NCBI GenBank assembly: GCA_023511915.1
Contig: JAIMAN010000004.1
Coordinates: forward strand, 7,881-71,880
Length of the DNA: 64,000 nt
Direction of reading: 5' to 3'
Source of the DNA: Armatimonadota bacterium
GTDB taxonomy: Bacteria > Armatimonadota > Fimbriimonadia > Fimbriimonadales > GBS-DC
The stretch's first letter is position 1, and each line of letters starts with the position of its first letter. This document shows positions 2,786 to 43,207 of this stretch, piece after piece. A program made the translations under genes and the position numbers. The notes under the pieces are model-generated. The model searched no databases. It saw only the letters and a list, made by a program, of their open reading frames with translations, and was not told where the DNA came from.

Positions 2786-3820
2786 ATGGCAGACGAGGAA
2801 CGCACAGAACAGGCGACGCCGCGCAAGCGGCAAGAGGCGCGCCAGAAGGGGCAGGTTGCCCGCTCCACCGAAATCAACGGCGCGGCGATTTTCCTCGCGC
2901 TGGTGCTGACGCTGCCGCTGGCGATGCGCTGGGGCGGCGAACGGTTCCTCGCCGCGTTCCAGCAGCAGATTCTGCAGGCGGGCGTGGGGCGACTCTCCGA
3001 CGCAATCGGACTCAGCGCGCTGATGGTGCTGGCGCCCCTGATGGCGGCGGCGTTCCTGACCGCGCTGGTCGCCAACGCGATGCAGGTCGGCATCTACTTC
3101 ACGGCGCAGCCGCTGCAGCCCGACCTGAACCGCATCAATCCCGTCAAGGGCTTCCAGCGGCTCTTTTCGCAGCGCTCGGCGGTGGAGTTGCTGAAAGCCG
3201 TCCTCAAGTTCGGGCTGATTACTTGGGTCGCATGGCGCACGCTGCAGGCGGAGACCGAACGGCTGGTCGCCGCGTCGCAGTTGCCGATGCCGCACGCGCT
3301 CGCGCCGATGACCGACGCGCTCTACCAAGTCGGGCTGCGCGTGGGCGCGCTGTGGCTCGTGCTGGCAATCTTGGACTACCTGTACCAGCGGTGGGACTTC
3401 GAGAAGACGATTCGCATGTCGCGCTACGAACTCAAGCAAGAGTTCAAGCAGACGGAGGGCGACCCGTACTTGCGGGTACGCATACGACAGCGGATGCAGG
3501 AAGTGGCGCGCCAGCGTTCGATTCGCGATGTGCGCCGCGCCGATGTGGTGGTCACGAACCCCGTGACCTACGCGGTGGCGTTGCGCTATGACCGCGCAAC
3601 GATGAACGCCCCGCGCGTGGTCGCCAAAGGCAAGGGCTGGCTCGCGCAGCGTATCCGCGAGGAGGCGCTCAAATGGCATGTGCCGATTGTACCAAACCCG
3701 CCACTGGCGCGCAGCCTGTACGCACAGGTGGAGGTCGGGCAGGAAATCCCCAGCGCGCTCTATCAAGCGGTCGCCGAGGTGCTGGCGTATGTGTACCGCC
3801 TGCGGCGCGGCAGGCGGTAG
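2786..3820 (+). CDS. flhB: Flagellar/type III export apparatus switch protein FlhB
   Basis: ATG at 2786 lies inside ORF 2363..3820. N-terminus is MADEERTEQATPRKRQEARQKGQVARS, followed by four TM helices. C-terminal blocks are VVVTNPVTYAVALRYD, APRVVAKGKGWLAQRIREEA and VPIVPNPPLARSLY. The upstream part of the ORF is Arg/Gln-rich junk. Confidence 0.85.
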   Translation: MADEERTEQATPRKRQEARQKGQVARSTEINGAAIFLALVLTLPLAMRWGGERFLAAFQQQILQAGVGRLSDAIGLSALMVLAPLMAAAFLTALVANAMQVGIYFTAQPLQPDLNRINPVKGFQRLFSQRSAVELLKAVLKFGLITWVAWRTLQAETERLVAASQLPMPHALAPMTDALYQVGLRVGALWLVLAILDYLYQRWDFEKTIRMSRYELKQEFKQTEGDPYLRVRIRQRMQEVARQRSIRDVRRADVVVTNPVTYAVALRYDRATMNAPRVVAKGKGWLAQRIREEALKWHVPIVPNPPLARSLYAQVEVGQEIPSALYQAVAEVLAYVYRLRRGRR

Positions 3821-3842: not shown

Positions 3843-3872
3843 TTGACAATCGGGCGCGAAATGTGGTACAAT
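3843..3872 (+). promoter_or_regulatory. Sigma70-type promoter for tRNA-Asn (TTGACA-N18-TACAAT)
   Basis: TTGACA at 3843-3848 and TGgTACAAT ending at 3872; the tRNA starts 15 nt downstream. Confidence 0.6.
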
Positions 3873-3886
3873 ACACTCACCGACGC

Positions 3887-3962
3887 TCCTGGGTAGCTCA
3901 ACTGGCAGAGCGGGTGGCTGTTAACCACCAGGTTGCAGGTTCGAGCCCTGCCCCAGGAGCCA
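3887..3962 (+). tRNA. tRNA-Asn (anticodon GTT), CCA encoded
   Basis: Manual cloverleaf: acceptor TCCTGGG/CCCAGGA, D arm GCTC/GAGC, anticodon stem GGTGG/CCACC with loop CTGTTAA, T arm GCAGG-TTCGAGC-CCTGC, discriminator G, then CCA. Total 76 nt. Confidence 0.9.
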
Positions 3963-9168: not shown

Positions 9169-10320
9169 TCAGCGCAGCACGGTACGCACGGTTCCGACCG
9201 CCAGCGTGCCGCCGTCGCGCAGCGACAGGGCGCGTATGGTCGCCACATCGTGCGCAGGCGGGCGCGTGCGCGGCACGAACACGGCAATCTCCACCAGCGC
9301 CGAGCCGTTGGGCGCAACGATGGGCGTGGTTGCAGGGCGCGCCTCTGTACGCCACTGGTTGCCCGAAACCAGAATCGCGTACTGCTGCGGGTAGCGGCTC
9401 TTGTTGCGCACAAACAGCCGATGCACCAGCACGCGCGGGGTCGGCGTGTAGCGAATCGTGTAGTCAGGCTCCAGCAGGATGCCCGACTCGGCGGTCAGTT
9501 GAATCAGCGGGTCTTTGCGCACGGCGTCGCCCCACACCCAGTCCCACGCCGCCAAGTCGCCGCGCAGGTACAGCTCGAAAAACGCTGTCAGCAGGCGGCG
9601 CGTGAGTTGGAGTTGCGTTGCGCGGGGCAACGACCCGCTGTCGCAGCCGAAGATGGAGGTGTCTTGGAAGCCGCAGTGCCAGCCGCCCTGAATGACGGGC
9701 AGCAGCTTCGGCGCGAAGCCCGCGGTATACATGCGCAAGCCGTTGCTACTCAGCGGCGTGATGGTATCTGCACTGCCCGAAATCAGGCTGTGGGGCACGG
9801 TGACATTCGGCGACGCCTGAATCGCCGACGGGTTCGTCTCCGCCGCGGCGAGGTTCGCCACCACCTTGATGCGGGCATCCGCTGCTGCCGCGAGGATGCT
9901 CGCCCCGCCGCCCATCGAGTGCCCCGAAACGCCGAACTGCGCGGTCGCCACCTGCCCGAACAGCCACGAAGCAGGGTCAGCGTTCTGCGCCTCCAGATAG
10001 GTCAGGCAATAGCGCATGTCTTCCGAGTAGGCGCGGTGGTTGGGGAACAGCTCCAGCCCCGACTCGGTCGCGATGGCGAGGTAGCCCCAAGTGGCGAGGT
10101 GTTCCAGAATCGAGCGGTAGCGCTCAGGCGGCTGCAGGAAGCCGTGCCCGAACGAGACGGCAGGGTAGGGCGCGCCGCTGCCGTCGTAGGGCGTGTTGTC
10201 GCCCGTCGCCGTCGCGGGGTAGTAGAGTTGCGCGGTGAAGGTCGTGTTGTTCGGGCGGCGCACCGTCACGCGGCGTCGCCCCACGCGATAAGCTCCTGGC
10301 GCGGCATAGTCGGTTTGCAT
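9169..10320 (-). CDS. Alpha/beta hydrolase of the cutinase/PETase (dienelactone-hydrolase-like) fold with an extra C-terminal beta-rich domain
   Basis: ATG at 10320 has a GGGAGA SD and a TATACT -10 (10344-10349). The sequence is collinear with polyesterases. It has LYYP...PAVSFGHGF, the nucleophile elbow GHSMGGG (Ser codon 9916-9918), the acid GSADTITP and the His motif GGWHCGF. About 110 extra residues follow. No signal peptide. Confidence 0.65.
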   Translation of the reverse strand: MQTDYAAPGAYRVGRRRVTVRRPNNTTFTAQLYYPATATGDNTPYDGSGAPYPAVSFGHGFLQPPERYRSILEHLATWGYLAIATESGLELFPNHRAYSEDMRYCLTYLEAQNADPASWLFGQVATAQFGVSGHSMGGGASILAAAADARIKVVANLAAAETNPSAIQASPNVTVPHSLISGSADTITPLSSNGLRMYTAGFAPKLLPVIQGGWHCGFQDTSIFGCDSGSLPRATQLQLTRRLLTAFFELYLRGDLAAWDWVWGDAVRKDPLIQLTAESGILLEPDYTIRYTPTPRVLVHRLFVRNKSRYPQQYAILVSGNQWRTEARPATTPIVAPNGSALVEIAVFVPRTRPPAHDVATIRALSLRDGGTLAVGTVRTVLR

Positions 10321-10351: not shown

Positions 10352-10993
10352 TCATGTTTGCTGTTCCTGCAGGGCTTGGTAGACGCTGGCGAGGGTGTTT
10401 TCCAGCTCCTTCTGGGCGATGGTGAGGGTCAGGTCGGCGCGGGTGCGCTCCAGCACGGCGCGCAGCGCGTCGCAGGCGCGTCGCAAGCCGCTGGTAACCG
10501 CGTCGGGGTAGTCGAAGGTGACCAGCTCGTCGTAGATTTCGTCCATCACGCCCAGCAGGGTTTCGGCGTGCGCGAGTTCGCCTGCGCGCAGCAAGTCCAG
10601 CACATAGCGTCGGCACTCAGAGGCGGCTTCGGCGACGCCGTTGAGGTACGCGCCGACATCGACGCCCAGTTCGTCGGGTTCGGGCAGCGCGTCGCCCAGC
10701 ACGATGGCGTACAGCGTCTCGCCTTCCACGAGTTCCTTCTCGGCGTCTTGCAGGAAGCCCGCGTGGTAGATTTGCGGGAACGGGCGCAGTTGCTCGCGGG
10801 CGTGGCTGATCTCGCGGTATGCCTGCGTCAGCAGTTCGCGGCAGGCGTCGAACTCGTGGCGGTGCAGGCTGCGGATGGCGCGGGCGCAGAGTTGGGTCGC
10901 TTTACGGCAGGCTTGGAGCCCCTGCTCACGCGCGTGGTGGCGCGCGTCCACCTGCTGGCGCAGCTGCTCGGCGATCTCGCTCCAGTGGTTCAT
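10352..10993 (-). CDS. Translin-family (COG2178-like) predicted nucleic-acid-binding protein
   Basis: 213-aa all-helical protein starting MNHWSEIAEQLRQQVDARHHAREQ. The block YLNGVAEAASECRRYVLDLLRAG...MDEIYDELVTFDYPD matches the translin pattern as I remember it. Start is preceded by TATAAT-N6. Confidence 0.5.
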   Translation of the reverse strand: MNHWSEIAEQLRQQVDARHHAREQGLQACRKATQLCARAIRSLHRHEFDACRELLTQAYREISHAREQLRPFPQIYHAGFLQDAEKELVEGETLYAIVLGDALPEPDELGVDVGAYLNGVAEAASECRRYVLDLLRAGELAHAETLLGVMDEIYDELVTFDYPDAVTSGLRRACDALRAVLERTRADLTLTIAQKELENTLASVYQALQEQQT

Positions 10994-11070
10994 GGCGGGA
11001 TTATACCCCGCGACATTCTCAAGGGGCGCAGGTGAACGACGGCACGGGGCGTCCTTACCAAGGGCGTATA

Positions 11071-15963: not shown

Positions 15964-16117
15964 TTGACATCCGCGCCCGCCATAGGGTATAGTTAAGATG
16001 TCGTCAGGAGGACGACCTTTGTGGAGGGTACCATAGGCCACCTCTACGAAGCATCCGGGACACGGAGGTCCCACCGCATTTTCGGGGCGAGCAGAAACGC
16101 TTGCCCCGATTTTGTTT
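15964..16117 (+). ncRNA. Candidate small RNA: orphan promoter + four hairpins + intrinsic terminator (family unassigned)
   Basis: TTGACA (15964-69)-N18-TATAGT (15988-93). Hairpins at 16000-16016, 16021-16047 and 16057-16072. Terminator stem at 16083-16108 followed by ATTTTGTTT. Confidence 0.3.
16083..16117 (+). terminator. Intrinsic terminator (10-bp stem + U-tract); the U-tract overlaps the upp stop codon
   Basis: CGGGGCGAGC-agaaac-GCTTGCCCCG (one G-U pair) followed by ATTTTGTTT. Confidence 0.7.
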
Positions 16118-16742
16118 ACCGCGCCCCTGTGCCGTAGAGCCGATCCCCGAAGTCGCCTAAGCCTGGCAGGATGAATTTTCGGTCGTTCAGTCCGCGATCT
16201 ATAGAGGCGGCGACGATGCGCACCTGCGGGAACCGCTCGTTGAGCAGGCGCACGCCTTCGGGCGCGGCGACCACGCACACATGCACGATGTCCTGCGCGC
16301 CCGCTTTCAGCAGCACTTCAATCGCCTGCGCCGCCGAGCCGCCCGTCGCCAGCATCGGATCCAGCAGCAGCACGCGACTTGCGCCGATGGGGGGCAGTTT
16401 ACAATAGTACGCGCGGGCGACGGCGGTTGCTTCGTCGCGCTCCAGCCCGATGTAGCCAACGCGCACATCGGTGAACAGCTCCGTGATAGCTTCCAGCATG
16501 CCCAGCCCCGCCCGCAGAATCGGCACGGCGACAATAGGCTGCGCCAGCGAGTGTCCTTGGGTCGGCTCCAGCGGCGTCTGCACGGTGTGCTCGCGCACGG
16601 GCAAATCGCGCGTGGCGTCCACCGCCAGCAGCAGGGTCAACTGCCGCGCCAGCGCACGGAACTGGGCTGGCTCCGTCGAAGCGTCGCGCAGGCGCGTGAG
16701 AATGTGCTTCACCAACGGGTGCTGTACGACCTCAATCTGCAT
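16116..16742 (-). CDS. upp: Uracil phosphoribosyltransferase
   Basis: MQIEVVQHPLVKHILTRLRD...ILRAGLGM...LLLDPMLATGGSA...IDRGLNDRKFILPGLGDFGDRLYG. Confidence 0.9.
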   Translation of the reverse strand: MQIEVVQHPLVKHILTRLRDASTEPAQFRALARQLTLLLAVDATRDLPVREHTVQTPLEPTQGHSLAQPIVAVPILRAGLGMLEAITELFTDVRVGYIGLERDEATAVARAYYCKLPPIGASRVLLLDPMLATGGSAAQAIEVLLKAGAQDIVHVCVVAAPEGVRLLNERFPQVRIVAASIDRGLNDRKFILPGLGDFGDRLYGTGAR

Positions 16743-25185: not shown

Positions 25186-26730
25186 ATGGCTATCCGACCC
25201 GAAGAGATTACCAGCATCTTAGCGAAGGAAATAGAGACCGCCGACGGCAAGCCGACCGCCGAAAGCGTCGGCACGATACTGCAGGTCGGCGACGGTATCG
25301 CCCGCGTGTACGGGCTGCCCGACGCGCAGATGGGCGAACTGCTGGAGTTCCCGCACGAGGTGATGGGCATGGTGCTGAACCTCGAAGAGGACAGCATCGG
25401 CGTCATCGTGCTTGGCTCCGACGAGGAACTCAAGGAGGGCGACCCCGTCAAGCGCACAGGGCGCATCGCCGAAGTGCCCGTCGGCAAGGCACTCTTGGGG
25501 CGTGTGGTGGACGCGCTCGGACGACCCCTCGACGGCAAGGGTCCCATCGTCGCCGACGAGTACCGCCGAATCGAGGTGATTGCGCCTGGCGTCATCACCC
25601 GCCAGCCCGTCAAGCAGCCCCTGCAAACGGGCATCAAAGCCATCGACGCGATGATCCCCATCGGGCGCGGGCAACGCGAACTCATCATCGGCGACCGCTC
25701 CACAGGCAAAACCGCCATCATTCTGGACACCATCATCAACCAGAAATACACGCACGAGACCGAAGGCGAGAAGCCTGTGTACTGCATCTATGTCGCCGTC
25801 GGGCAGAAGATGGCGGCAGTCGCGCGATTCATCGACACGCTGGAGCGCTACGGCGCGATGCAATACACCACCGTCGTCGTGGCGTCGGCGAGCGACCCGA
25901 ACAGTCTGCAGTACCTTGCGCCTTACGCAGGCTGCGCAATGGGCGAATACTTCCGCGACAACGGCATGGACGCGCTGGTGGTGTACGACGACCTGTCGAA
26001 GCACGCGCAGGCGTACCGCGCGGTGTCGCTGCTGCTGCGCCGACCGCCTGGACGCGAGGCGTATCCTGGCGATGTGTTCTACCTGCACTCGCGCCTACTG
26101 GAGCGCGCGGCGAAGATGTCCGACGCCTACGGCGGCGGCTCGCTGACCGCGCTGCCCATTATCGAGACGCAAGCGGGCGATGTGTCGGCGTACATCCCCA
26201 CGAATGTCATCTCCATCACCGACGGGCAGATTTACCTTGAGCCGAGCCTGTTCTACGCGGGTATCCGCCCTGCGATTAATGTGGGCATCTCGGTCAGCCG
26301 CGTGGGGGGCGACGCTCAAATCCGCGCTATGAAGCAGGTCGCGGGACGCCTGCGCCTGGAGATGGCGCAGTTCCGCGAGGTGCAGGCGTTCGCGCAGTTC
26401 GCCTCGGACTTAGACCGCGCCACCCAGCTGCAGCTGGCGCGCGGACTGCGCCTGCAAGAGGTTCTCAAGCAGCCGCAGTTCACCCCGATGCCCGTCGAGG
26501 AGCAGGTGATGATCATCTTCGCGGGCACACAGGGCTACATGGACGACATCCCCGTCGAAAAGGTACGCGCCTTTGAGGAGGGCTTCCACCCCTACATGCG
26601 CGAGAAGTACCCTGAGCTGGGCGAGAAAATCCGCCGCGAGAAGAAGCTCGACGAGGACACCGAGCGCACGCTGCGTCAAGCGATTGAGGCGTACAAGCAA
26701 CAGTTCCTGAAGGAGCACGGGCTGGCATGA
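25186..26730 (+). CDS. atpA: F0F1 ATP synthase subunit alpha
   Basis: [19 protein letters not shown] (P-loop), [44 protein letters not shown]. Confidence 0.95.
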
Positions 26731-27593
26731 GAACGCTGCGAGGCATGCGCGCGCGAATCCGCGCGGCGAAGAGCATCCAGCAAATCACGCGGGCGATGAA
26801 GTTGGTCTCGGCGGCGCGCCTGCGTCGGGCGCAAGACCGCGTGCTGGCGGCGCGCCCCTACGCCCAGCGCATGCACGAGGTGCTGCAGGAACTCGGACGC
26901 GCAGGCGAGCTGCCCGACCATCCCCTGCTGCAGAAACGCGAGCCGCGCACCGTCGGCTTCGTGCTGGCGACCTCCGATCGCGGGCTGTGCGGCTCGTACA
27001 ACATGAATCTCATCCGCACGCAGCAGACCGCTATCCGCGACATGGGGCTGACCCCAGAGCAGGTGAAACTCATCTGCGTGGGGCGTCGCGGGTATCAGTT
27101 TTTCAGCAAGCGCGCCTACCCAATTGCGCTCTACCGCTCGATGCCGACCGCAGGCGCGGGGCTGGACGACGCGCGCGCCGTCGCCGACGCCGTGCAGGAG
27201 ATGTTCGTCAGCGGCGAGCTGGATCGCGTGTACCTCATCTACTCGCAGTTCATCAACCCCGTGACGCAGCGTCCGACGGTGCTGCCGCTTCTGCCTATCG
27301 AACCGCCCGCGGGCGAGGACGACGGCGCACACTACGACTTTGTGTTCGAGCCGTCGGCGGAAGAGCTGCTGGCGCGCCTGCTGCCCCGCTACCTGCTGAC
27401 CGAAGTGCTGCAGGCGCTACTGGAAGCCAGCGCGAGCGAACACGGCGCGCGCATGACCGCCATGTCGATGGCGAGCGACAACGCAGGCAAGATGATTCAA
27501 GAGCTGACGCTGACCATGAACCGCCTGCGCCAAGCCGCCATCACCAAAGAGATTGCCGAAGTGGTCGGCGGCGCGGAGGCGCTGAAGGGCTAA
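26727..27593 (+). CDS. atpG: F0F1 ATP synthase subunit gamma
   Basis: ATGA overlap with atp[27 protein letters not shown] ... [21 protein letters not shown]. Confidence 0.9.
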
Positions 27594-27621
27594 TCGTCGC
27601 ACAATCAGCAGGAATCGCATT

Positions 27622-27643
27622 GCGCCCGCCGAATCGCGGGCGC
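27622..27643 (+). terminator. Perfect 8-bp GC hairpin directly after atpG (terminator-like, no U-tract)
   Basis: GCGCCCGC-cgaatc-GCGGGCGC. It ends 1 nt before the ATG of the next gene. Confidence 0.4.
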
Positions 27644-28537
27644 ATGCGACGACGAACCACAGTGCAGGAGTGGCAGCCCAAAACGCAAGAGAAGCTGCTG
27701 ATTATCCACGCCGACGATATGGGCATGTCCCACTCGGCGAACCGCGCGACCATCCGCGCCTTCGAAACGGGCGCAATCAGCAGCGCGAGCTTGATGATGC
27801 CCTGCGCATGGGTCGCGGAAGCCGCCGACTGGATTAAGCGCAACCCCACTGCCGATGTCGGACTGCACCTGACGCTTACCAGCGAGTGGGGCACGAACCG
27901 CTGGCGTCCCGTCGCGCCCGTCGACAAGGTGAAGGGGCTGCTGGATCCGCAGGGCTACATGTGGCGCAGCGTGGAGGATGTCGTGCGCCGCGCCAGCCCC
28001 CAAGAGGTGGAGACCGAAATCCGCGCCCAAATCGAACTCGCGCTGCAGATGGGGCTTAAGCCGACCCACCTCGACTCGCACATGGGCACGCTGTACGCCG
28101 ACGCGCGGTTCTTCGAAGTGTTTCTGAAGGTGGCGATGGAGTACCGCATTCCGCCGATGGTGTTCAGCCCAACGCCTGAGATGATGCTGATGGCGGCGAC
28201 GCGCGGACTGAACTACCGCGAGGTGTTCCAGCGCATCGAAGCGGCGGGACTGCCCCGCATCGATTACCTCAACCCGCAGTACGCGCCCGGCGAAAGCAAG
28301 GAGAAGCACCGCCAACGCCTGCACGACTACCTACGCACGCTCAAGCCCGGCGTCAACGAACTGATTGTGCATCTGGGCATGGACGACCCCGAAGGCAACG
28401 CCATCACGGGCGGCTGGCGCTACCGCGTGCAGGAACTCGAAATCCTCCAAGAGCCTGAGTTCAAGCGCGTCTTGCAAGAGCAACAAATCCGCCTCTTCAC
28501 CTACCGCGAGCTGGCGAAGATGTATAATTATGGGTAG
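27644..28537 (+). CDS. YdjC/ChbG-family carbohydrate deacetylase
   Basis: LLIIHADDMGMSHSANRATIRAFETGAISSASLMMPC...DVGLHLTLTSEW...THLDSHMG. The start codon is uncertain. Confidence 0.7.
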   Translation: MRRRTTVQEWQPKTQEKLLIIHADDMGMSHSANRATIRAFETGAISSASLMMPCAWVAEAADWIKRNPTADVGLHLTLTSEWGTNRWRPVAPVDKVKGLLDPQGYMWRSVEDVVRRASPQEVETEIRAQIELALQMGLKPTHLDSHMGTLYADARFFEVFLKVAMEYRIPPMVFSPTPEMMLMAATRGLNYREVFQRIEAAGLPRIDYLNPQYAPGESKEKHRQRLHDYLRTLKPGVNELIVHLGMDDPEGNAITGGWRYRVQELEILQEPEFKRVLQEQQIRLFTYRELAKMYNYG

Positions 28538-28661: not shown

Positions 28662-30326
28662 ATGGAAGCGTATCGTGAGGGTCAAGCAGACCTTCGGCGC
28701 TACATGCGTGCGATTGCGCGTGCGCGGGAACGCATGCGTGCGGGCGGTGGGGCGGCGTCAACGCCCTGCTATACAGATGTGTGTCTGGGGCGCGATACAG
28801 AGCTGCACGCGCTCCAGCAGTGGTTCGAGACGCCCAACGCGCCGTTGCTAACGCTGGAGGGTCCGTCGGGGATTGGCAACGCGCCCCGCAATCCCGCCCC
28901 TGAGCAAAGCGCAGCGACAAGTGGTGATGGATCGATTGCGCGTTTACTACAAGAATTGCCTACAGCCCTGTACGCCACGCAGTCTGCACGGCAAGTACGC
29001 GAATGGTGCTTCCAGGAAAGGAACATGCTACAAAGCGTGTTGGACGACTTGGCGGAGCGGGGGCTGCACGCGGAACTGGCAAGCTTTGTGGAGCTGTTGA
29101 CCATCGCCAACGCGCACCGCCCGCCTGCGAATCTGCTGGATTGGTGCTTAAAGTATGCCGTGCACGCAACGCACATGCCCGACGAGTCGCGCGCCGCGCT
29201 GGCACACGCCGTGTTTGTGGCGCTGGTGGACAGCGGCGAGAACGCGAAGGCGAAGCAGTTGGCGCCCATCCTGGAAGGCTCACCGCGCTATGCGCCCGTC
29301 GTGGCGCGATTTTGGCACAACATCGGCGAAGGCGACCGCGCCCGTCGGCACTACGAACAGGCGTTTATCCATGCGGAGTCCGACGGCGTGCGCGAAGAGG
29401 CTGTGCGATACGCGGCAGAACTTGCAGAGAGCGAAGCGGTCGTCGGCAACCTGCACGAAGCAGAGACTATCCTGCGGGACATCGAACGCCGCCATCCCGT
29501 CTGGCGCATGTCGGAAGCGGTGCGCAGCTGGTTTCTCTATGTGGGCGGCTACCTGAACTACCAGCGCGGGCGGTTCCGCCGCAGCCGTGAACTGTACGAG
29601 AAAAGTGCGGCGCTGGGCGTACACGCCAACAACGCCTCCCGCGAACTGAGCCGCGTCTACTTGGAACTGGGCGACTACGCCCGCGCCGAACAGTACGCCC
29701 TCGCAGGGCTCCGACATTTCGAGGGCGACCCTGAACCCGTGCAGCCCACGCTGCACGCGCTAAACGCTTGCTTGGGCGACCTGTACGCCGTGCTGGAGTG
29801 CTACGACGATGCGCTGCAACGGCGCCTGCCCGCGCTGGACTTCTGGCGCAACGAGGAGCAGCCGCGCTGGATTTGCTGGAGCCTCAACCGCGTCGCCGAA
29901 ATCGAGCTGCTGGCGCGCGACGCCAATCACCCGTGGCGCTTGACGCACAGAATCGAGCGCGACGCGCATGCCCTGCTGCACGAAGCGTGGGTAGTGATTG
30001 AGCCGACCTACATGAATCTGCCCCACAAGTCGCGCACGCTGCACAATCTCGGCTGGCTCGCCTGGCACGAAGGACGCTCGGACGAGGCGGAGCAGTACCT
30101 GACCCGCGCGCTGGACATCCGTCGGGACTACGGCAACGAGTACGGCGTCGCCCGCACGCTGGAGCTACTCGCGCGGCTGCGCTTTAGTCAACACCGCTAC
30201 GCCGAGGCGCGCGCCCTGTTCCAGCAAGCCAGCGACATCCGCTTGCGACTGGAGGCGAAACCCTACCCCGCCGTGAAACGCGCCAACCTCTCGGTGCATC
30301 GAAAACTGCAGACTCTCCGAGATTAG
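28662..30326 (+). CDS. TPR-repeat protein with a remnant STAND/AAA-type N-terminus (degenerate P-loop)
   Basis: AGGAGG SD. N-terminus LGRDTELHALQQWFETPNAPLLTLEGPSGIGNA resembles the lead-in to a Walker A, but Lys is replaced by Asn and no NTPase domain follows. The remaining ~400 aa are TPR-like helical repeats. Confidence 0.55.
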   Translation: MEAYREGQADLRRYMRAIARARERMRAGGGAASTPCYTDVCLGRDTELHALQQWFETPNAPLLTLEGPSGIGNAPRNPAPEQSAATSGDGSIARLLQELPTALYATQSARQVREWCFQERNMLQSVLDDLAERGLHAELASFVELLTIANAHRPPANLLDWCLKYAVHATHMPDESRAALAHAVFVALVDSGENAKAKQLAPILEGSPRYAPVVARFWHNIGEGDRARRHYEQAFIHAESDGVREEAVRYAAELAESEAVVGNLHEAETILRDIERRHPVWRMSEAVRSWFLYVGGYLNYQRGRFRRSRELYEKSAALGVHANNASRELSRVYLELGDYARAEQYALAGLRHFEGDPEPVQPTLHALNACLGDLYAVLECYDDALQRRLPALDFWRNEEQPRWICWSLNRVAEIELLARDANHPWRLTHRIERDAHALLHEAWVVIEPTYMNLPHKSRTLHNLGWLAWHEGRSDEAEQYLTRALDIRRDYGNEYGVARTLELLARLRFSQHRYAEARALFQQASDIRLRLEAKPYPAVKRANLSVHRKLQTLRD

Positions 30327-30381
30327 CCGCCCCAAAACGCTTAATTCCCTTTTCACTGCACCGATTCAGGGGGATATTTTG

Positions 30382-30582
30382 TGGACATCCTCCTGACGCG
30401 CCCCATATAATTTAGAGTGTAGCGCGTGCGGAATAGGGACTTGAAAGTTCGTTAGTGCCCCGCGACGGGCAAGTAAGTCTGGCTCTTAACAGTGGAACGG
30501 GAAAGCGACACGCAAAGCCTTATCTGCCTGCCTATATCTGCCCCTCGGGGCGTCCTGACCTCCGCCTCGAGGGGGCTTTTTT
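30382..30582 (+). ncRNA. Candidate structured RNA or riboswitch-like leader (family unassigned): promoter, ~165-nt body, strong intrinsic terminator
   Basis: TGGACA (30382-87)-N18-TATAAT (30406-11). Internal helix pairs 30468-84 with 30516-28. Terminator has a 12-bp stem (30541-52 with 30563-74) followed by T6 (30577-82). No credible ORF. Confidence 0.35.
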
Positions 30583-30610
30583 GGTTTGCCCCTGCAGGTA
30601 CAATTCGCGC

Positions 30611-31741
30611 GTGGCGGCTCAGACCCCTGCGCTTGGCTCCCTTGCGGAACGGCTGCGCCTGCGCCAGGTAGACGCGCCCCTGCTGCTGACGACGCTGCTG
30701 CTGATTGGCGTGGGGCTGGCGATGCTGTATAGCGCGACCTACCAGTGGTCGCCTGCGGTGTTTCGCAAGCAACTGGCGCTGCTGGCGGTGGGCGCGGCGG
30801 GCGCGATTGCGCTGGCGGCGATTCCCCCGCGCGTCTGGCTGCGCTTCTCCAAGCCGCTATACGCGCTGAATGTGCTGATGCTGCTGGGCGTGCTGGCGTT
30901 CGGGGCGGAGCGCAAGGGCGCACAACGCTGGCTGGAGTTGCCCGGCGGGTTCCAGTTGCAGCCGTCGGAATTCGCGAAACTGCTGCTGATTCTGACGCTG
31001 GCGGCGTGGCTGGCTCGAAACGGCGCGGCAATTCGCACGCCGAAGGGGTTTATGCTCTCCGCGCTGCATATGGCGGTTCCCGCGCTGCTGGTGTTCAAGC
31101 AGCCCGACTTGGGCACCTCGCTGGTGTTCGCGGCGGTGTGGTTCGCGATGGTCTATTTGGCGGGGGCGCGGGCGCGTTGGCTCTGGCTCACCGTCGTGGC
31201 GGGCGCGCTCGGCTTCGCGGGGCTATGGCACTTCGACATCCTGCGCGACTACCAAAAAGCGCGACTCGTGTCGTTCCTTGACCCCGAAGCCGACCCGAAG
31301 CAGAGCGGCTACCACATCCTGCAGGCGCGAATCGCCGTCGGCAGCGGGCAACTCACAGGCAAGGGCTACCTGCACGGCACGCAGAAGAACCTGCGCTACA
31401 TCCCCGAACAGCACACCGACTTCATCTTCGTGGTGGTCGCGGAGGAGTTGGGCTTTGTGGGGTCGGTCGGGCTGCTGGGGCTGTTCGGCGCGTTCCTTTA
31501 CGCCGTCTGGCGGATTATGATGACCACGCGCGACGAGTACCACCGCCTGCTGGCGGGGGGCATCCTGACGCTGTTCACCTTCCACCTGCTGACGAATGTC
31601 GGCATGACGATAGGACTGTTCCCTGTGGTGGGCATCCCGCTGCCGTTTATCAGTTATGGGGGCAGCATGCTGATTACTGCGCTGGCGGCGGTCGGGCTGC
31701 TGCTGGCGATTCGGCTGCACGAGTCGCCTGTGCGCCTGTAG
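30611..31741 (+). CDS. SEDS-family peptidoglycan glycosyltransferase (RodA/FtsW/SpoVE)
   Basis: GTG at 30611 sits 6 nt after TACAAT. LLLIGVGLAMLYSATY, FQLQPSEFAKLLLIL, PDLGTSLVF, IPEQHTDFIF and PLPFISYGGSML. Confidence 0.85.
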   Translation: MAAQTPALGSLAERLRLRQVDAPLLLTTLLLIGVGLAMLYSATYQWSPAVFRKQLALLAVGAAGAIALAAIPPRVWLRFSKPLYALNVLMLLGVLAFGAERKGAQRWLELPGGFQLQPSEFAKLLLILTLAAWLARNGAAIRTPKGFMLSALHMAVPALLVFKQPDLGTSLVFAAVWFAMVYLAGARARWLWLTVVAGALGFAGLWHFDILRDYQKARLVSFLDPEADPKQSGYHILQARIAVGSGQLTGKGYLHGTQKNLRYIPEQHTDFIFVVVAEELGFVGSVGLLGLFGAFLYAVWRIMMTTRDEYHRLLAGGILTLFTFHLLTNVGMTIGLFPVVGIPLPFISYGGSMLITALAAVGLLLAIRLHESPVRL

Positions 31742-36737: not shown

Positions 36738-37343
36738 CTAATCCCCCTCAATCCCCCACTCAGGCACGAGGTTCTGCTCGACGCCAAGCGCCTGAAGCGT
36801 GCGGGCGACGACGGTATCCACCGCCTCTTCCAGCGTCTTGGGGCGGTTGTAGAACGACGGGTTCGCAGGCAGGATGACCGCGCCCGCCTCTGCCGCCTGC
36901 ACCATGTTGCGCAGGTGAATCAGGTTGAACGGCGTCTCGCGCACGACCAGGATCAGCGGGCGTCGCTCCTTGAGGCACACATCAGCGGCGCGGGTCATCA
37001 AGTCGTCCGAGATGCCCTGCGCAATCCGCCCCAGCGCGCCCATCGAGCAGGGAATCAGCACCATCCCGTCGTGGCGGAAGCTGCCGCTGGCGGGCGGCGA
37101 GAAGTAGTCGCGTGGGTGCAGCACCTTCAGCCCCGCCCACGAGTAGCCCAGCAGCGTCTCCGCAGAAAGCGTCTCGCGCGTGACCTGTAGCCCCAACTCG
37201 GTCTGCATCACCTGAATCGCCTGCTCCGAGCAGATGAGGTAAATCTCCTGGAAGTGGCGCGTCGCCTGCTTGAGGAACCGATTCGCATATATCCCGCCGC
37301 TGGCGCCTGTGATGCCCACCACCAGCCGACCTGTGCGCGTCAT
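36738..37343 (-). CDS. ubiX: Flavin prenyltransferase UbiX
   Basis: LVVGITGASGGIYANRFL...LIPCSMGALGRIAQGISDDLMTRAADVCLKERRPLILVVRETP. Confidence 0.85.
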   Translation of the reverse strand: MTRTGRLVVGITGASGGIYANRFLKQATRHFQEIYLICSEQAIQVMQTELGLQVTRETLSAETLLGYSWAGLKVLHPRDYFSPPASGSFRHDGMVLIPCSMGALGRIAQGISDDLMTRAADVCLKERRPLILVVRETPFNLIHLRNMVQAAEAGAVILPANPSFYNRPKTLEEAVDTVVARTLQALGVEQNLVPEWGIEGD

Positions 37344-37432
37344 GGCAGGATTCTACCTCGCGTCGGGCGACCCGCTCCGTGATTCGTATCACGCAGGCAG
37401 GAAGCGCGGGCGAGGGCGCGAATCGGCATGGT

Positions 37433-42673: not shown

Positions 42674-42688
42674 AGGTACAATTGCGCT

Positions 42689-43207
42689 ATGCAGGAGCGT
42701 CTGTGGGCGCCGTGGCGAATGCAGTATGTCAGCGAGGCGGGCAAACCGAGCGCGGAGTGCATCTTCTGCGCCAACCCTGCCGCCGACGAGGACGCCCGCA
42801 CCCTCATCGTCTGGCGCGGGCAACTGTGCTTCGTGATGCTGAACCTGTACCCGTACACCAGCGGACACCTGATGATTGCGCCCTACCGCCACACGCACGA
42901 CTTGGCGAGCCTGACCGACGCGGAGTGGCACGAGTTGGGCGCGCTGACGCGCCTATGCCTGCGTGCGCTGCAGCGCGAGTACCGCCCCGACGGGTTCAAT
43001 GTCGGGTTCAACTTGGGGCGCGCGGCGGGCGCAGGCATCGAAGCGCACCTGCATATGCACATCGTGCCGCGCTGGCATGGCGACACAAACTTCATGGCGA
43101 CCCTCGGCGAAACGCGCGTGCTGCCCGAAAGCCTGGAGCAGACCTACACGCGCATCCGCAACGCCCTGCAGGAGGTGAGCGCGTCCGATGATGGAACAGC
43201 CCGTTGA
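42689..43207 (+). CDS. HIT-family nucleotide hydrolase/transferase
   Basis: LWAPWRMQYV...CIFC...LNLYPYTSGHLMIAPYRH...HLHMHIVPRWHGDTNFM contains the histidine triad. TACAAT-N6-ATG. Confidence 0.8.
   Translation: MQERLWAPWRMQYVSEAGKPSAECIFCANPAADEDARTLIVWRGQLCFVMLNLYPYTSGHLMIAPYRHTHDLASLTDAEWHELGALTRLCLRALQREYRPDGFNVGFNLGRAAGAGIEAHLHMHIVPRWHGDTNFMATLGETRVLPESLEQTYTRIRNALQEVSASDDGTAR

Follow-up and report, generated by a model that had tools for sequence, protein, structure and literature searches.

The 284-bp gap upstream of rodA in a GC-rich genome of the Fimbriimonadales (Armatimonadota) holds a self-contained unit that runs from a near-consensus promoter to a strong intrinsic terminator, and we suggest, with a probability of about 0.5 and from comparison of sequences, that this unit is an independently transcribed, lineage-restricted sRNA gene of thermophilic Fimbriimonadales specifying an RNA of ~165 nt. 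We base this reading on a promoter that matches the consensus at 11 of 12 positions, a covarying terminator, five homologues, patchy conservation and the lack of a conserved ORF, as well as on the facts that rodA keeps its own promoter and that eight close relatives have no unit. The production of an RNA, its exact ends, a trans-acting mode and its targets are what we infer from these patterns. A preliminary description of this DNA had wavered between a riboswitch-like leader of rodA and, as a fallback, an independent sRNA; it is the fallback that fits the comparative data best, and all of the coordinates given there agree with the sequence. Throughout, "the window" is the whole 64-kb stretch of DNA that was analyzed; its features around the unit are listed in Table 1.

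Table 1. Features of the window at and around the unit upstream of rodA
Feature	Position	Strand	Remarks
ATP synthase gamma	26727-27593		
YdjC-family deacetylase	27605-28537		
TPR protein	28662-30326	+	
Gap holding the unit	between TPR gene and rodA		284 bp
Conserved block upstream of the -35 (…TTTTCACTGCACCGATTCAGGGGGATATTTTG)	30333-30381	+	T-rich, UP-like beside the -35
Sigma-70-type promoter TGGACA-N18-TATAAT	30382-30411	+	11/12 match; -35 TGGACA 30382-87, -10 TATAAT 30406-11, spacer 18 nt
Predicted noncoding transcript	30417-30582	+	~165 nt; covariance model R1 matches 30412-30585
Invariant 5' block AGCGCGTG	30421-30428	+	8 invariant columns
Fast-evolving central core	30434-30519	+	28/88 columns invariant
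Small hairpin GCCCC…GGGC	30457-70		within central core
Conserved GGGCAAGTAAGTC	30467-79		within central core
GEMM-like 10-mer ACGCAAAGCC	30510-19		within central core; not conserved
Invariant C-rich 17-mer TATCTGCCTGCCTATAT	30521-30537	+	tandem CTGC; longest invariant run
Intrinsic terminator	30540-30582	+	12-13-bp GC-rich stem, 10-nt loop, T6
rodA promoter and start GGTACAAT-N6-GTG	30597-30613	+	leaderless type; delimits the unit
rodA (SEDS family, FTSW_RODA_SPOVE)	30611-31741	+	Pfam PF01098, E = 7.5e-97
Polyprenyl synthase	beyond rodA		

Boundaries of the unit and the start of rodA

The 5' end of the predicted transcript was placed from the position of the -10 element and its 3' end at the T-run. 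Scanning the window with the consensus TTGACA-N16-18-TATAAT, we found three sites with 11 of 12 matches against 0.03 expected from Markov resamples, which bears out the earlier view of the promoter as near consensus. All three carry an 18-nt spacer, suggesting that this length is the optimum for strong promoters in the window organism. The promoter of the unit belongs to a rare class that also drives stable RNAs (tRNA) in this genome; the member at 3843 serves a tRNA, and the one at 15964 precedes another structured, ORF-poor unit. At 3843-3872 (+), TTGACA-N18-TACAAT lies directly upstream of the tRNA at 3887-3959.

The second promoter-to-terminator unit, at 15964-16118 (+), opens with TTGACA-N18-TATAGT (15964-93) and would yield an RNA of ~120 nt whose folding is much more stable than that of shuffled sequences (z = -5.5) and which ends in a terminator at 16082-16118. 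AGGAG and ACGGAG lie in its hairpin loops, and 15992-16118 gives a weak match, below the gathering score, to RsmW of the Csr/Rsm clan (22.9 bits, E = 0.039). This unit could encode a CsrA-sponge-like sRNA, the alternative being a small ORF preceded by AGGAGG-N8-GTG. An 8-nt complementarity between CGGAGGUC in the second unit (16000-16118) and GACCUCCG in the terminator loop of the unit upstream of rodA was dismissed as chance, as about 0.3 such matches are expected by our own estimate.

The terminator has a stem of 12 bp, one of them G-U, between 30541-52 and 30563-74, and its T-run, TTTTTT, occupies 30577-82. The preliminary description had ranked it among the strongest of the window, and it stands first: among 23 hairpins abutting a T-run of at least 5, the hairpin at 30540-76 has the lowest folding energy (dG -25.4 kcal/mol) and, with its T6, is the only clean canonical terminator. 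Across the six units known to us (see below), its 13 pairs are formed in 98.7% of alignment cells with three compensatory pairs, a covariation record drawn from six sequences in two tight groups, and these comparative data indicate that the stem is real. With an 11/12 promoter at one end and a top-ranked, covarying terminator at the other, the unit holds up as self-contained. The loop and 3' arm (CTGACCTCCGCCTC, 30555-68) form a run of 14 invariant columns that includes an anti-Shine-Dalgarno (anti-SD)-like CCUCC lying partly inside the stem.

Among the homologues, 9 to 16 nt separate the T-run from the rodA -10 element, 16 nt in the window. This spacing differs by 7 to 8 nt between the two sequence groups, which speaks against the idea that the conserved 3' blocks serve the rodA promoter as DNA sites of fixed geometry. 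The terminator plausibly also shields the leaderless rodA promoter from read-through.

The gene downstream had been described as having a start of its own, TACAAT-N6-GTG (30599-30613), and this was borne out: GGTAnAAT-N6-GTG precedes rodA in all relatives in which the rodA start was read (~30 loci), with or without the unit, and the sequence upstream of it differs among them. For a leadered transcript, rodA has no usable Shine-Dalgarno (SD) sequence. We take rodA to be independent of the unit, and the unit, as judged from these comparisons, to be dispensable for rodA, because the gene has its own conserved promoter and eight close relatives manage with no unit.

Starts of this type recur in the genome. 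Five copies of the motif GGTANAAT-N6-RTG are present in the window, where 0.07 would be expected (70-fold), and each lies at the start of an ORF of 172 to 376 aa. GGTAnAAT followed after 6 to 7 nt by ATG or GTG is seen at the start of long ORFs at 3677-3693(-), 10991-11007(-), 12260(+), 30597-30613(+), 37341-37357(-), 42675-42691(+) and 45908(-). Leaderless mRNAs with a -10-only, G-extended promoter thus appear to be common in Fimbriimonadales; a literature search on leaderless mRNAs or noncoding RNA in Armatimonadetes returned nothing relevant. In six loci (L002, L006, L014, L018, L019, and L021), a minus-strand extended -10 element, TGCTATAATAGAG, lies about 100 to 200 nt upstream of rodA, accompanied by the SD sequence GGAGAGGAG and serving a divergent upstream gene; this clade therefore has leadered genes that use an SD sequence as well as leaderless ones.

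Occurrence and conservation among relatives

A RodA-guided scan of species genomes yielded 24 Armatimonadota loci, and BLASTN of the gap against these matched only L001 (AP024673.1) and L003. An exact 18-mer scan of metagenome contigs returned two true matches (L056 and L061) along with 24 chance matches; it missed a further homologue, L087, through a single T-to-C change, and this one was added by contig look-up. The preliminary description had called for a search for homologues in related genomes, and the unit is present in these five Fimbriimonadales MAGs and metagenome contigs. A covariance model (CM), R1, built from five sequences scores the six units at 155 to 198 bits, with E <= 1e-40 for each of the five homologues. 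Beyond the six, the model detected no copy when applied to the window and 40 related loci; 30 other Armatimonadota loci lack the unit, and it was not found beside ydjC in genomes whose rodA lacks it. RodA has its best matches in MAGs of thermophiles and in metagenome contigs from hot springs, and the RodA label of the SEDS gene is also found in the sources of its homologues. BLASTN against phage and plasmid collections gave no match and hence no indication that the unit is of mobile origin.

In all six cases the unit lies on the same strand as rodA and directly upstream of it, and no other context was found; that it was never found away from rodA counts against the sRNA reading. The upstream neighbor varies, being the TPR gene in the window, L003, L056, and L087 and ydjC with no TPR gene in L001, where homology to the window starts at 30333, immediately past the TPR stop codon. 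In L061, the flank is unalignable and the break falls exactly at 30414, while the next 9.4 kb are 96.8% identical to the window; the junction may mark a site of recombination or a chimeric assembly. Beyond the break, which falls at the -10/transcription start of the unit, L061 carries G/T-rich low-complexity sequence (9403-9594, minus strand). The TPR protein has 554 aa in the window, and its counterpart in L087 (1-1219), called as 811 aa, has AAA_16 (STAND-type ATPase) matches; the copy in the window may lack part of its N terminus, and close relatives vary in this gene, which L001 does not have.

The promoter reads TGGAAA-N18-TATAAT in L001 and L003 and has TACAAT as its -10 element in L087. 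Together with the block of ~50 nt upstream, it is kept in four of the five unit-bearing relatives, all but L061, where the promoter region has been replaced and the -10 element is poorer (TATAAG), a further point against an sRNA gene. The block is nearly invariant in the window, L056, L001, and L003 and present in L087, and is possibly the site of a regulator.

Eight close relatives with RodA proteins 87 to 95% identical (L080 to L086 and L092) have no unit; in these, a divergent GH172 gene sits 38 to 125 nt upstream of rodA. A divergent GH172-TauE pair abuts rodA in many close relatives, replacing the ydjC-TPR-unit arrangement. Because the unit-bearing and GH172-type loci are interleaved on a neighbor-joining tree of rodA, repeated rearrangement or recombination at the rodA junction is suggested.

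Such a history bears on an explanation that we hold to be unlikely, namely, that the unit has no function at the RNA level and is junction DNA at a rearrangement-prone site, with a terminator that ends the ydjC/TPR unit and insulates rodA and a promoter that either is incidental or acts only via the process of transcription, which would occlude the rodA promoter or interfere with it. The interleaving of the two arrangements on the rodA tree, the changing upstream neighbor (a TPR gene, none in L001, another flank in L061) and the T-run only 9 to 16 nt from the rodA -10 element are consistent with it, and the window has few other canonical terminators, such that one placed before a leaderless gene makes sense. 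Divergence at or above the synonymous rate, with a core that evolves faster than 4-fold sites, points the same way. However, an 11/12 promoter is expected only 0.03 times per window, the promoter and the ~50 nt upstream of it are retained in four of five unit-bearing relatives, and a role for the terminator alone leaves the invariant 17-mer and 5' block unexplained.

The conservation at issue here is patchy. Identity of the unit to the window (82% in L056 and L061, 60% in L001, and 64% in L003) does not exceed the identity at 4-fold sites of rodA and ispA (61 to 95%), and that it is no higher overall than at synonymous sites speaks against the sRNA reading. The alignment indicates a kept 5' block, 17-mer, and terminator with its loop around a variable center: the core is 32% invariant, compared with 59% at rodA 4-fold sites (p = 3e-7), whereas the 3' third is 77% invariant against the same 59% (p = 0.003). 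GTAAGT is also among the conserved patches. The 17-column run has a permutation P of 3e-4, and no permutation produced two runs of at least 14; the 17-mer TATCTGCCTGCCTATAT occurs once in the window and is, judging from its invariance, a candidate seed or protein-binding site. Conserved ends with a variable center are the pattern of many trans-acting base-pairing sRNAs, such as OmrA/B.

A small protein as the product of the unit, whether from a leaderless or a leadered start, is highly improbable. Leaderless starts are common in the window genome and short ORFs exist in individual sequences, but no in-frame ORF is common to the six units, in which indels of 8, 2, and 1 nt occur (the 8-nt one separating the two sequence groups), and in the window TATAAT-N5-GTG runs into TAG at once. 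The frame that opens at GTG 30455 is in phase with rodA and extends it upstream, in line with the earlier statement that the region has no credible ORF; no conserved small protein spans the region in the six units, whose indels are not multiples of three.

Folding and alternative pairings

The consensus fold consists of a closing helix around small variable hairpins and a separate terminator. As a whole, the RNA folds no better than shuffled sequences (z = -0.86 and -0.63), which counts against the sRNA reading, as does the absence of covariation outside the terminator. The possible closing helix (helix 1, 30415-37 with 30518-40), whose 5' strand includes AGCGCGTG, comprises 20 pairs, 8 of them invariant, 7 with one-sided changes, 5 with unpaired cells, and none with a double change; double compensatory changes outside the terminator occur only in 2- to 4-bp helices in the badly aligned core. 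Covariation, to which the preliminary description had looked for confirmation of a structured RNA, is therefore present as three compensatory pairs in the terminator and missing from helix 1.

An earlier proposed pairing of 30468-84 with 30516-28 checks out, with 11 Watson-Crick pairs, 1 G-U, 1 mismatch, and a 4-nt bulge. Its GGCAAGUAAG (30468-77)/CUUAUCUGCC (30518-27) part is kept in all six units with one-sided changes only and is mutually exclusive with the closing helix; the 17-mer can thus pair with either the 5' block or GGCAAGUAAG. The duplication of TATCTGCC at 30521-28 and 30535-42, previously taken as a cue for attenuation, is found in the window only and not in relatives. Three similar GC palindromes (30457-70, 30540-51, and 30564-76) change in concert between the two groups.

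These alternatives raise the question of whether the unit is a cis-acting transcription attenuator, i.e., a leader of rodA, which we regard as improbable. In that model, 30456-62 would pair with the terminator 5' arm at 30546-52 while GGCAAGUAAG pairs with the 17-mer, and the strong promoter would feed rodA only when the terminator is overridden, with a protein, small RNA, or ligand choosing the state. The constant position directly upstream of rodA on the same strand favors it, as does the existence of two mutually exclusive conserved partners for the 17-mer. The antiterminator-like pairing itself (UGCCCCG with CGGGGCG) is possible in all six units, with one pair passing from G-C through G-U (L003) to A-U (L001); the same base covaries with its terminator partner, and this lone covarying pair could equally reflect the concerted change of the three GC palindromes.

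The energies divide the units. For a transcript ending before the 3' arm of the terminator, the antiterminator-like state is the minimum free-energy (MFE) structure in L001 and L003 and isoenergetic in L061, in support of attenuation, but it is 5.6 to 7.8 kcal/mol worse in the window, L056, and L087. At full length it is worse still, by 11 to 17 kcal/mol in the window, L056, L061, and L087 and by 3 to 5 kcal/mol in L003 and L001. Attenuation is further opposed by the conserved leaderless promoter of rodA 16 nt past the T-run and the want of a usable SD sequence, by the close relatives that manage with no unit, by a core that, at 32% invariant, is not fit for an aptamer, and by the lack of an Rfam match.

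A more elaborate form, in which a new protein- or ligand-responsive attenuator adds a regulated leadered rodA transcript to a constitutive leaderless one, seems to us quite doubtful; its switch would consist of the invariant 17-mer together with the three GC palindromes that change in concert. If true, it would represent an unrecognized class of cis-regulator for the expression of a SEDS cell wall polymerase in Armatimonadota.

Comparison with known RNAs and biological meaning

A search of the entire window at gathering score brought up two tRNAs as the only Rfam matches; a scan of 30300-30700 at E <= 10, with relaxed filters, gave only a terminator-like match to suhB/mmgR (E = 0.58). The cmscan check proposed in the preliminary description therefore yielded no riboswitch family, GEMM-I (RF01051) included. 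That lead had come from ACGCAAAGCC at 30510-19 and GGGCAAG at 30467-73, which resemble conserved GEMM-I segments, the comparison being with what we take to be the Vc2 sequence; the unit shares with GEMM-I the 10-mer, a GGGCAA-like segment, and a downstream terminator. However, there is no match to RF01051 or any other riboswitch either at gathering score or at E <= 10 over the 401 nt, and the 10-mer is present in the window and L061 and nearly so in L056 and L087 but becomes GCGCAAACGCC in L001 and L003. The consensus fold lacks two adjacent hairpins and a GNRA tetraloop-receptor, the two motifs are separated by an 8-nt indel and poor conservation, and rodA, unlike the target of such a switch, has its own promoter. 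With the CM failure, the loss of the motif, and the missing hairpin pair, a GEMM-I riboswitch is effectively refuted, and control of rodA by the unit as a riboswitch of the GEMM-I (c-di-GMP-I) class or another known class is extremely unlikely; GEMM-I and the small protein can be considered effectively excluded. More generally, an aptamer core more conserved than its surroundings and with covarying helices was sought in the six units and not found.

Two other known RNAs were considered and rejected. For 6S RNA, there is no Rfam 6S match at E <= 10, and the unit lacks a rod with a large central bubble; for a CsrB/Rsm sponge (clan CL00106), no clan match was obtained in 30300-30700, and the architecture is unlike.

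With attenuators of the type of the HMP-PP riboswitch, described in PMC6478431 as having a terminator-embedded aptamer, the unit has in common a strong terminator with an unusually conserved loop, a same-strand gene next to it, and an upstream segment that can pair with the terminator 5' arm. It differs in having no conserved sensor domain and a strongly favored terminator state; in addition, the neighboring rodA has a leaderless promoter of its own, and close relatives can dispense with the unit.

Closer parallels lie among sRNAs. The enterobacterial OmrA and OmrB have conserved 5' and 3' ends and a variable center, and the unit is like them in having its own sigma-70 promoter, a GC-rich terminator with a U-run, no ORF, a size in the class of ~100 to 200 nt, and a conserved 5' end combined with a 3' terminator module. 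It differs in that it belongs to another phylum, shows no sequence or CM relation to any Rfam sRNA family, and has an extremely narrow phyletic range (six sequences, one locus). Firmicutes sRNAs with C-rich loops (the UCCC motif of the Rsa family and RsaE/RoxS) pair with SD regions, and the unit is likewise C-rich in conserved segments (CUGCCUGCC and CCUCC in the terminator loop); by analogy, it is conceivable that CCUCC, the anti-SD core, pairs with GGAGG-type ribosome-binding sites. In contrast to the Rsa-type RNAs, CCUCC lies partly in a stem here, there is no homology, and no target pairing was predicted above background; when the first 90 nt of rodA were tried as its partner in RNAduplex, the energies were no better than those of shuffled sequences.

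If the unit is indeed an sRNA gene, a strong sigma-70-type promoter would start transcription near 30417, and a very stable intrinsic terminator would stop it at 30582, 16 nt before the rodA -10 element, with rodA being transcribed separately as a leaderless mRNA. The conserved C-rich segments of the RNA might then bind a protein or base-pair with purine-rich (SD-like) stretches of target mRNAs. The terminator would incidentally prevent leadered, SD-less rodA transcripts from arising from the ydjC/TPR operon and from the unit itself.

For the biology of this lineage, our analysis suggests that rodA, a core cell elongation gene, is expressed from a leaderless promoter and that promoters of the form GGTAnAAT-N6-start are common. 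In other respects the unit is unremarkable, a further candidate for an intergenic sRNA confined to one lineage and unconnected with c-di-GMP signaling. Armatimonadota are known mostly from MAGs, and almost no RNA biology is available for them; if expressed, the RNA would, as far as our literature search showed, be among the first candidate regulatory sRNAs for this phylum.
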